Shown: positions 2,210 through 4,075 of the stretch, piece by piece
Layout: the number at the start of each line of letters is the position of its first letter
Numbering within the stretch: position 1 is the stretch's first letter
IMG/VR virus record: IMGVR_UViG_2778261316_000010
Direction: 5' to 3' (one strand)
DNA from: a virus
Lineage: Duplodnaviria > Heunggongvirae > Uroviricota > Caudoviricetes
Length of the DNA stretch: 4,075 nt
Notes under the pieces: model-generated
Databases searched by the model: none
Told to the model about the DNA's origin: nothing
What the model saw: the letters and a program-made list of their open reading frames with translations, nothing else
Program-made: the position numbers and the translations under genes

Positions 2210-2425
2210 TCATCGTTCCTTAAAGACGCCGTTTAACATGCCGATTGCCAGGCTTAAATGAGTCGGTGTGAATCCCATCAGCGTTACCGTTTCGCGGTGC
2301 TTCTTCAGTACGCTACGGCAAATGTCATCGACGTTTTTATCCGGAAACTGCTGTCTGGCTTTTTTGATTTCAGAATTAGCCTGACGGGCAATGCTGCGAA
2401 GGGCGTTTTCCTGCTGAGGTGTCAT
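2210..2425 (-). CDS. Hypothetical phage protein (71 aa)
   Basis: MTPQQENALRSIARQANSEIKKARQQFPDKNVDDICRSVLKKHRETVTLMGFTPTHLSLAIGMLNGVFKER. ATG at 2425 overlaps the TGA of the upstream 27-codon ORF (ATGA), suggesting translational coupling. The ORF track's 104-aa version needs a TTG start inside the methyltransferase gene and is not preferred. Confidence 0.6.
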   Translation of the reverse strand: MTPQQENALRSIARQANSEIKKARQQFPDKNVDDICRSVLKKHRETVTLMGFTPTHLSLAIGMLNGVFKER

Positions 2426-2505
2426 TGAACAAGTCCCATGTCGGCAAGCATAAGCACACAGAATATGAAGCCCGCTGCCAGAAAAATGCATTCCGTGGTT
2501 GTCAT
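2422..2505 (-). CDS. Candidate small hydrophobic peptide (27 aa), not in ORF track
   Basis: ATG at 2505-2503 overlaps the methyltransferase TGA stop (ATGA) and has GGGAGG 4 nt upstream. Product MTTTECIFLAAGFIFCVLMLADMGLVQ has a single hydrophobic helix-length core. Its TGA overlaps the orf71 ATG. Coding status is inferred from this coupling geometry only. Confidence 0.45.
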   Translation of the reverse strand: MTTTECIFLAAGFIFCVLMLADMGLVQ

Positions 2506-3059
2506 GCAGCCTCCCGACGGGCAAGAATCCTTGAGCCGAACGCCATCAACTCTCCACGATCAACGGTCGTAAAGTGGCAGTGTGTACGGGGGTATGGGTG
2601 CCAGATAATGAGCATCGAGCCTTTATTATTTCCACTGACGGGTTTCTCAGTGAGTGGGTTAATAAATGCCAGTCGTCCTGCCGTGATGAATCTGACCTCA
2701 CTGGCGGTTTGTATCGCTTCATGAAACCATCCGACAGATGTGTCAGCAGGCAATAACATTACACATCCCACACTACTGAATTTGTTTTCAGTGGCTGCCT
2801 TTTTCACAAAAGGGGAAATATTGCTGTATGGTGGATTCAACCAGACATAACCAGAGGCATATCCCATTGCTTCAGGCCATGAAGTGGTTAATGTGTTCTG
2901 CTCCTGTGAGATAAAAAGCCGACATAGTCGGTTTTTTTCGCTGGCGGCAGCATCAAGTTGAAAAACGAACTCTGCATTAAGCGCAGCAAAAATCTCTGGT
3001 GGTGTGCGCCAGCTGTCGCGATGTTCGGCAGGAGTATTGCTTCCGGTGAAATCAGTCAT
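2502..3059 (-). CDS. Phage-type DNA N6-adenine methyltransferase (Dam family, orphan)
   Basis: 185-aa product with the N-terminal WRTPPEIF...FVFQLDAAAS block and catalytic motif IV NPPY (GYVWLNPPYSNI), characteristic of the phage Dam N6-adenine methyltransferase family. GGGGG ribosome-binding site 4 nt before ATG 3059. No adjacent restriction endonuclease gene. Confidence 0.88.
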   Translation of the reverse strand: MTDFTGSNTPAEHRDSWRTPPEIFAALNAEFVFQLDAAASEKNRLCRLFISQEQNTLTTSWPEAMGYASGYVWLNPPYSNISPFVKKAATENKFSSVGCVMLLPADTSVGWFHEAIQTASEVRFITAGRLAFINPLTEKPVSGNNKGSMLIIWHPYPRTHCHFTTVDRGELMAFGSRILARREAA

Positions 3060-3213
3060 ACAGCCCCCGTTTATTATTTATCTCCTCAGCCAGCCGCTGT
3101 GCTTTCAGGGGATTTCGGATAACAGAAAGGCCGGGAAATACCCAGCCTCGCTTTGTAACGGAGTAGACGAAAGTGATCGTGCCTACCCGGATATTATCGT
3201 GAGGATGCTTCAT
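3052..3213 (-). CDS. Small phage protein (53 aa), lambda orf60a-like by position; not in ORF track
   Basis: ATG at 3213-3211 overlaps the exo TGA stop (ATGA) with GGGGAG 8 nt upstream. Product [53 protein letters not shown]. Its stop overlaps the methyltransferase start. In lambda the gene after exo (orf60a) overlaps the exo stop the same way; similarity is by position, not verified. Confidence 0.55.
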
Positions 3214-3488
3214 CGCCATTGCTCCCCAAATGCAAAACCAATTTCAGCTAGTGCCTCGTCCATTTTTTCGATGAACTCCGGCACCATCTCGTCAAAACTC
3301 GCCATGTACTTTTCATCCCGCTCAACCACGACATAATGCAGGCCTTCACGCTTCATACGCGGGTCATAGTTGGCAAAGTACCAGGCATCTTTTCGCGTCA
3401 CCCACATGCTGTACTGCACCTGGGCCATGTAAGCCGACTTTATGGCCTCGAAACCACCGAGCCGGAACTTCATGAAATCCCGGGAGGT
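3210..3488 (-). pseudogene. exo: Truncated exo (lambda Red-alpha exonuclease), C-terminal ~90 codons only
   Basis: Translation ...[92 protein letters not shown] is near-identical to the C-terminus of lambda Exo as I recall it. Upstream the frame has no start codon back to a stop at 3585-3587, similarity is lost, and the first ATG (3473) is preceded by CCTCCC rather than a Shine-Dalgarno. The N-terminal ~135 codons are absent. Confidence 0.85.
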
Positions 3489-3878
3489 ACTGTAATCGAC
3501 AGCTGGTCCAGTATGGTGTTTTTGAAGTTCAACGGGGCGAAATTTTCTGCCTCTGATTACCCTGTGCTGGCGAAAGTGTTTCCTTCACTGGTATTACCTG
3601 AAGCCCGCGGTGATTTCATTCGTATCTGGGATGACGGGCGAGGTGCCGATGGTGGTCGCGAATTATTAAGCTGGCAGGAAGCTACAAACTTTTCTCAGTT
3701 TGCCGGGAATATAGGCGGAGGTGCGGGACACACAATTAACTTTCATGATGGCATCGCCGGAAATCAGCCAGGATTTTCACGATTTAATTTCACCAGTAAC
3801 TCTGTGGGTGATGGTGTGAATTTTGTTGCTGTCAGACCGCGAAATATTGCATTTAACTTTCTTGTGAGGGCTAAATAA
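3489..3878 (+). pseudogene. C-terminal fragment of a phage side tail-fibre gene
   Basis: Plus-strand translation ...[55 protein letters not shown]... carries the tail-fibre collar signature (CNGA..S...YP.L ... LPD.RGRFIR.WD.G.G.D.GR...S.Q.DA). Only about 120-130 C-terminal codons are present and there is no credible start or ribosome-binding site; the ORF-track start at 3336 lies antisense to exo. Left boundary is approximate. Confidence 0.7.
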
Positions 3879-4000
3879 TGAAACCTGTTTTTGATGAAAA
3901 TGGGCTGGCTACAGTGCCGGGCGATATGCGTTGTTTTTATTATGATGCTGAAACATCTGAGTATACGGGCTGGTCTGATGAATATATTAATACTGGCGTA
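3878..4000 (+). pseudogene. Tail-fibre assembly gene, N-terminal 41 codons, interrupted by IS1
   Basis: ATG at 3878 overlaps the tail-fibre TAA (TAATG). MKPVFDENGLATVPGDMRCFYYDAETSEYTGWSDEYINTGV matches the N-terminal pattern of caudoviral tail-fibre assembly proteins (compare lambda Tfa ...IKIYNLLAGTNEFIGEG). The frame then runs into IS1 sequence at 4001. Confidence 0.65.
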
Positions 4001-4023
4001 GGTAATGACTCCAACTTATTGAT
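4001..4023. repeat. IS1 terminal inverted repeat (IRR)
   Basis: GGTAATGACTCCAACTTATTGAT, the canonical IS1 right inverted repeat as I recall it. The 9 bp before it (3992-4000, ACTGGCGTA) would be the target-site duplication if repeated at the other IS1 end. Confidence 0.85.
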
Positions 4024-4075
4024 AGTGTTTTATGTTCAGATAATGCCCGATGACTTTGTCATGCAGCTCCACCGA
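4016..4075 (-). CDS. insB: IS1 transposase InsB, C-terminal end (partial)
   Basis: Minus-strand translation of 4075-4019 gives SVELHDKVIGHYLNIKHYQ then TAA, the known C-terminus of IS1 InsB. The rest of the gene is outside the window. Confidence 0.85.
   Translation of the reverse strand, partial: SVELHDKVIGHYLNIKHYQ

Follow-up and report, generated by a model that had tools for sequence, protein, structure and literature searches.

A conserved 27-codon reading frame next to orf61 of lambdoid phages as a candidate gene for a translationally coupled membrane peptide

[quoted passage not shown] The locus described here raises the question of whether this region holds a further gene; an earlier note had pointed out a hydrophobic reading frame of 27 codons between a methyltransferase gene and a 71-aa gene (orf71) of a viral sequence of 4,075 nucleotides (IMG/VR record IMGVR_UViG_2778261316_000010; the window, meaning this whole stretch of DNA). 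Our analysis points to a real gene for a small protein in the early (pL) exo-xis operon of lambdoid phages, forming a two-gene module with orf61/orf71, and we regard this reading as likely. Its modelled product is most likely a translationally coupled small membrane peptide, and the small ORF probably relays ribosomes to orf61, whose own start is poor in Shine-Dalgarno (SD) sequence.

The small reading frame and its setting

The window corresponds to the thrW-proximal end of an E. coli lambdoid prophage. On the minus strand the tRNA gene is followed by an integrase, an HTH/xis-like gene, a DUF4222 gene, a TraR/DksA gene (lambda orf73) and the 71-aa gene, and beyond the latter by a Dam-type methyltransferase, a DUF1317 gene (lambda orf60a) and an incomplete exonuclease gene. 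Of the latter, only the C-terminal 87 codons remain (3210–3473); near 3475–3488 they join the C-terminal part of a plus-strand tail-fibre gene, and the next gene, for tail-fibre assembly, is broken by an IS1 end that starts at about 4001. Of 5426 complete genomes, a single one (NZ_CM194533.1) had the same decayed arrangement (3210–4075). What is left of the prophage lacks pL and the immunity region. Transcription comes from pL in intact phages; because the pL region is deleted here, the copy of the small ORF in the window may be silent and its product not expressed. The features of the locus are as follows.

115–190: tRNA-Thr(CGT)
2210–2425, minus strand: orf71, the lambda orf61 homologue (PHROG 303) at full length; its SD is weak, and it forms the downstream half of the module
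2422–2425, minus strand: downstream ATGA junction, at which the small-ORF TGA overlaps the orf71 ATG; GTGA in some alleles
2422–2505, minus strand: the 27-codon small ORF (frame A), MTTTECIFLAAGFIFCVLMLADMGLVQ, with an ATG start; corresponds to lambda complement(30925..31008)
2426–2491, minus strand: frame-B reading of the same DNA (MHFSGSGLHILCAYACRHGTCS), which phage records treat as the N-terminal part of a 93-aa Orf61
2502–2505, minus strand: upstream ATGA junction, at which methyltransferase TGA and small-ORF ATG overlap; the mosaic break with respect to lambda and Stx phages falls here as well
2502–3059, minus strand: phage Dam-type N6-adenine methyltransferase (PF05869), the upstream gene, occupying the place of lambda orf63
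2510–2515, minus strand: Shine-Dalgarno GGGAGG, with a 4-nt spacer (CTGC) to the small-ORF ATG, inside the 3' end of the methyltransferase gene

The ORF listing and the sequence itself confirmed the frame at 2422–2505 as it had been proposed, with its GGGAGG SD and an ATGA overlap at both ends. The small-ORF ATG reads at 2505–2503 and the methyltransferase TGA at 2504–2502; at the other end the small-ORF TGA reads at 2424–2422 and the ATG of the 71-aa ORF at 2425–2423. Predicted pairing with the 16S 3' end (anti-SD) amounted to −10.3 kcal/mol for the small ORF, the strongest of the gene string in the window, to −3.9 kcal/mol for orf71 and to −2.6 kcal/mol for the frame-B ATG at 2491. At loci carrying orf63 the small-ORF SD was weak by the same prediction (−3.1 to −5.6 kcal/mol). 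The double overlap had been called unlikely by chance, and a crude estimate for an open frame with an ATGA overlap to both neighbours indeed gave ~0.0065 per gene pair; taken alone, this figure is only suggestive across a genome scan, and the weight rests on the comparative evidence. A programmed −1 frameshift into orf61 was discarded, as inspection by eye revealed no X XXY YYZ heptamer in the zero frame.

The small ORF is omitted from RefSeq lambda, from current PGAP output and from all phage records inspected. PGAP starts the downstream gene at MTPQQ, the start at 2425 used here (WP_000188870.1), and leaves a 76-nt unannotated gap. The stretch can accordingly be read in three ways: as the small ORF in frame A, as an extension of Orf61 in frame B, or as spacer DNA without coding function. 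The name 'cell division protein ZapA', which NCBI often gives to this downstream protein, looks unfounded, the Pfam ZapA match being sub-threshold (E=0.014, 16.1 bits vs a cut-off of 23.8). The exact peptide was found on 981 contigs of the protein collection as GenBank 'hypothetical protein' (e.g. ETI79567.1) and has the UniRef entry A0A0A2SGE8_ECOLX. The description of the frame as unannotated thus holds for RefSeq, PGAP and the inspected phage records but not for some GenBank records, and the peptide is not new to databases. Literature searches did not find it, nor does it occur in the supplements of the EHEC small-gene ribosome-profiling paper, and the exo-xis literature searched does not list the small ORF among the recognised exo-xis genes (orf60a, orf63, orf61, orf73 and ea22). 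Searches of curated families yielded no significant match, the best being the sub-threshold phrog_21538 (E=0.68) and TIGR02507 (E=0.034), and none in Pfam. Members of 428–471 aa in the clusters of the peptide were set aside as unrelated clustering noise.

Two further identities were considered and rejected. The small ORF is not a C-terminal remnant of lambda orf63, since translation shows that orf63 ends at the overlapping TGA. For the lambda ribosome profiling of Liu et al. 2013, a review (PMC8614690) names only orf2311 (7 aa) and orf2313 (31 aa) as novel ORFs of this region. That the small ORF read stop-to-stop is the 31-aa orf2313 was judged less likely than an identity with a separate, exact 31-aa ATG ORF between orf61 and orf73; orf2313 is most likely the corresponding ORF at 2118–2213 of the window. 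This 31-codon ORF (MNMKSKIIRELQAPFLLFAFTLKRINQQFRD, minus strand) overlaps the orf71 stop with its ATG as ATGA, contains a terminator-like hairpin and T-run at 2171–2189 and is called hypothetical protein in some records. Three of its nine common changes were synonymous, i.e. it displayed no synonymous bias.

Distribution of the module and exchange of the upstream gene

The 84 nucleotides are 100% identical in lambda (NC_001416), where they lie between orf63 and orf61. Alignment with this genome placed the beginning of the homology exactly at the ATGA: lambda carries orf63 (DUF1382) upstream where the window carries the methyltransferase, and orf63 ends in ...ERNQV-TGA, with its TGA overlapping the same small-ORF ATG. 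At orf63-type loci the match to the window starts at the A of this ATG. Among 5426 complete E. coli genomes, 3144 contained the 84-nt stretch, at 4261 places in total, and tblastn recovered the full-length peptide at ≥92.6% identity in 175 phage records, all of E. coli lambdoid/Stx phages. A species-level scan of genome contigs returned, outside Escherichia, lambda contamination only. The orf61 family is essentially confined to E. coli, and the small ORF does not extend beyond the lambdoid and Stx phages of Escherichia. Lambda DNA (~48 kb contigs or fragments) was noticed in assemblies labelled Shewanella, Pseudomonas, Bradyrhizobium, Kitasatospora, Paenibacillus, Oceanobacillus and others (loci L008–L021), where the near-full-length lambda DNA is evidently spike-in or contamination.

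In all 107 loci gathered by a core-sequence pattern the upstream TGA overlapped the small-ORF ATG, behind several orf63 alleles as well as the Dam gene, and the downstream gene was always orf61, several alleles of which start with GTG. Altogether three types of upstream gene were found, all ending in a TGA that overlaps the small-ORF ATG and with mosaic junctions exactly at this ATG. The double overlap pointed out in the earlier note is kept behind these three different upstream genes. The window and locus L007 share the junction motif GGAGGC(T/G)GCATGACAA.

Locus L007 (Escherichia sp. E1V33) carries at 371–1438 a 355-aa DGQHR-motif (DndB-like) gene in the slot taken elsewhere by orf63 or the Dam methyltransferase, and this gene, too, ends with the junction motif GGAGGCxGCATGA. 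The slot seems to be a hot spot for swapping DNA-modification or defence-type genes. The DndB-like gene ends ...GGAGGCGGCATGA; as the sequence after it is 14 nt shorter, the ATG of this junction opens a 93-aa ORF in frame B, and in frame A a TGA comes at codon 6.

Further exceptions were noted at three loci. At L106, in one E. coli assembly, an IS66-family element lies in the first codons of the small ORF (about 1150–1215); gene callers report here a 100-aa chimeric 'orf61', whose cluster comprises 125 member sequences. At L107 the gene upstream encodes 250 aa; the orf61 allele behind it (MTIEHNN..., 344 cluster members) is preceded by a GAGG SD of its own and comes without the small ORF and without the frame-B extension. 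This arrangement shows the small ORF to be separable and dispensable, and the own SD of an allele lacking any upstream extension shows that orf61 can start at the 71-aa position. The third locus, L232, has been reduced by deletion to a remnant. The frame loss in L007 and the insertion in L106 likewise speak for dispensability, and we read L007, L106 and L232 as occasional loss in prophages amid near-universal integrity. The divergent orf61 clusters P0023 and P0036 were uninformative, being prophage deletion remnants.

Selection on the frame and competing readings of the same DNA

For the selection analysis 229 loci were collected, of which 217 could be placed by anchors in orf71, and each (site, allele) event was counted once. 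Frame A was full length in 216 of the 217 loci, the exception being a change of Q27 to a stop, one codon early. Stops or frameshifts beside conserved neighbours had been named as the observation that would speak against a gene; the 216 intact loci run counter to this, but in L007 the frame is lost while orf61 is kept. The loci fell into 26 DNA haplotypes, and one and the same peptide is encoded by 14 of them, which account for 193 loci. In frame A, 12 of the 21 substitution events were synonymous (null 6.1, P=0.002); for events present in three or more loci the proportion rose to 10/13 (null 3.8, P=1e-4), so that the synonymous-biased conservation for which the earlier note had suggested a test was indeed found. 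A second extraction gave, for common events, 11/13 synonymous in the small ORF vs 15/20 in the orf71 control, a bias as strong as in orf71. Divergence is low, and this signal rests on ~13 common polymorphisms. Nonsynonymous variants in frame A were rare and mostly conservative (T3A, F8L, E5K, V17L, V26I, A21S/D22G).

One alternative holds that the small ORF is a coupling bridge only, leading from the upstream gene to the SD-poor orf61, with a functionless peptide. It accords with the ATGA overlaps kept at both ends in every context, with the weak SD and occasional GTG start of orf61 and with the fact that small ORF and orf61 always travel together. A bridge, however, needs an open frame only, yet the 14 haplotypes converge on one peptide, with synonymous variants common and replacements such as T3A, F8L, V17L and V26I both rare and conservative; moreover, the L107 allele of orf61 manages without a bridge, using its own SD. 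We consider a function restricted to bridging unlikely.

A second alternative assigns the 84 nucleotides to the N-terminal 22 residues of the 93-aa Orf61 in frame B (MHFSGSGLHILCAYACRHGTCS-MTPQQ...), with frame A open by chance. Phage annotation follows this reading: Stx-phage records list a 93-aa Orf61 starting MHFSGSG... (b51 in AP005153, 93 aa), the annotated orf61 of lambda (MRETRYDNHGMHFSGSGLHILCAYACRHGTCSMTPQQ...) reads the same DNA in frame B from another start, the PHROG 303 profile includes the frame-B extension, and the 93-aa protein was used for published modelling (PMC8614690). In addition, frame B is open in all haplotypes, and in L007 a GGAGG and an ATGA-coupled ATG drive frame B into the 93-aa ORF. 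Open codons alone weigh little, as a run of 22 is expected by chance about a third of the time, and the substitutions point the other way. Only 4/21 events, and 1/13 of the common ones, were synonymous in frame B, with radical replacements (G7R, H18Y, T20A) and 13 variants of the extension. Lambda-type and Stx-type sequences differ by ACC>ACA, ACG>ACA/ACT, GCG>GCA, GAC>GAT, GGA>GGG and CAA>CAG, all silent in frame A, which in frame B amount to H>N, G>R or stop, G>R, H>Y, T>A and M>V. The frame-B ATG is essentially without an SD, the start of the annotated lambda orf61 is cut off by a TGA in 69 loci, and the 71-aa position serves as the start in the L107 allele as well as in PGAP. The model of the 93-aa reading had pLDDT 42–57 for residues 1–20 vs 75–94 in the core, and the published models disagree over residues 1–23 of the 93-aa protein (PMC8614690). 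Taken together, we judge this assignment distinctly unlikely.

An A6 run of orf71 (2360–2365, minus strand) has seven A in reference lambda, where the resulting frameshift leads to a truncated 61-aa orf61 product. Most relatives encode the full 71-aa protein, and several database variants slip further at the same A run.

That the wobble pattern stems instead from a plus-strand antisense ORF at 2438–2572 (MSASISTQNMKPAARKMH...) or from a non-coding RNA element is most improbable: the antisense ORF is open in all contexts because it shares third-codon positions with frame A, and 7/13 common substitutions are synonymous in it, but every change silent in it leaves frame A unaltered as well, three common changes are silent for frame A alone, and one of these three destroys the antisense start codon in nine loci. 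Its C-terminus runs into unrelated upstream genes, giving 44 aa in the window, 61 aa in lambda and 95 aa in L007, and the sole promoter-like plus-strand site nearby (2499–2528) would start transcripts downstream of the antisense start at 2438. It is probably not a gene. As for an RNA element, folding against shuffles was not unusually stable (z = +0.76), and Rfam gave no match.

The putative membrane peptide, its possible role and known systems

On the preferred reading, that of a small gene with a conserved product, the peptide has a GRAVY of 1.62, with an uninterrupted 16-residue apolar core (C6–A21) and a mean KD hydropathy of 2.87 over 15 residues, or 2.33 over 19 residues in a stretch that includes D22. 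It contains no K or R, hence none flanking the core, and two acidic residues, for a net charge of −2; the apolar core is short for a bilayer span. AF2, run on the peptide together with four upstream in-frame residues, predicted a single helix for peptide residues 3–25 at a mean pLDDT of 82. The hydrophobic single-helix character of the product is in line with both its hydropathy (rounded, a KD mean of 2.9 over 15 residues) and this predicted helix.

We propose that ribosomes would start on the small ORF via its SD and/or by reinitiation after the overlapping upstream TGA of orf63 or the Dam methyltransferase. The 27-residue peptide would then be made, its C6–A21 core forming, according to the model, a single helix that would insert into the inner membrane or attach to it. 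At the end of the small ORF, whose TGA overlaps the orf61 (A/G)TG, the ribosomes would terminate and be handed over to this poor-SD start. Because the amino-acid sequence itself is conserved, the peptide would be more than a coupling device; most likely it would be an accessory host-directed membrane factor acting in early lytic growth or in the lysis-lysogeny decision.

A bolder proposal, which we regard as speculative and unlikely, is that the peptide represents a missing exo-xis effector, a membrane-embedded helix made in step with its neighbours. In such a role it could account for part of the phenotypes now ascribed to orf61 or orf63; the published Δorf61 alleles replaced the annotated orf61, which contains most of the small ORF. 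It could likewise explain the lower levels of the host membrane-stress genes degP (log2 −3.0) and htpX (log2 −2.4), ~5–8-fold lower, in infection with the Phi24B exo-xis deletion mutant vs wild-type infection, a stress response for which Orf73/TraR could be an alternative cause. Lastly, a peptide-binding cleft has been described on the Orf63 dimer, and the small-ORF peptide could be its natural helical ligand; the small ORF persists, though, where the methyltransferase replaces orf63.

If the small ORF is a gene, lambda gains one conserved gene at complement(30925..31008), and structure modelling has used a 93-aa 'Orf61' of which 22 residues are probably not produced at all. The Δorf61 mutants, associated with a pro-lytic role, would also have removed the membrane peptide, so that their phenotypes would need re-attribution. 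The locus would further offer a clean natural example of a small gene serving as a relay between two translational couplings. No concept would be changed, as phage ORFs that are small, hydrophobic and overlooked by pipelines already form a known class.

[quoted passage not shown] Unlike them, it lies in DNA that annotation at present gives to orf61, read in another frame. The exo-xis products are not described as membrane proteins in the literature searched, and the small ORF would encode the first predicted membrane peptide of the block.

Surveys of the Hemm/Storz kind and of phage small genes have reportedly catalogued small (≤50 aa) single-helix inner-membrane proteins of E. coli and phages. 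The candidate peptide resembles these in its length, its predicted single hydrophobic helix, its having been missed by pipelines and its conservation in close relatives only; it differs in lacking flanking positive charges, in a core of 15–16 residues and in being doubly coupled within an operon.

Type I toxin peptides such as DinQ (27 aa), TisB, Ibs and ShoB provide another comparison. By analogy with these, the small-ORF peptide, being hydrophobic, predicted to be helical and ~27 residues long, could perturb the inner membrane. In contrast to type I toxins, the small ORF is operon-internal and ATGA-coupled, the plus-strand promoter-like site would direct transcripts away from it, and around it we found no antisense sRNA antitoxin, no promoter of its own and no long structured 5' UTR.

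With regard to its junctions, the module can be compared to trpB-trpA, a translationally coupled overlapping pair (ATGA, termination-reinitiation). Pairs of this type share with it the 4-nt ATGA overlap, which the small ORF has at both ends, and a weak SD on the downstream gene; the difference is that here a whole 27-codon gene with a conserved product appears to lie between two couplings.
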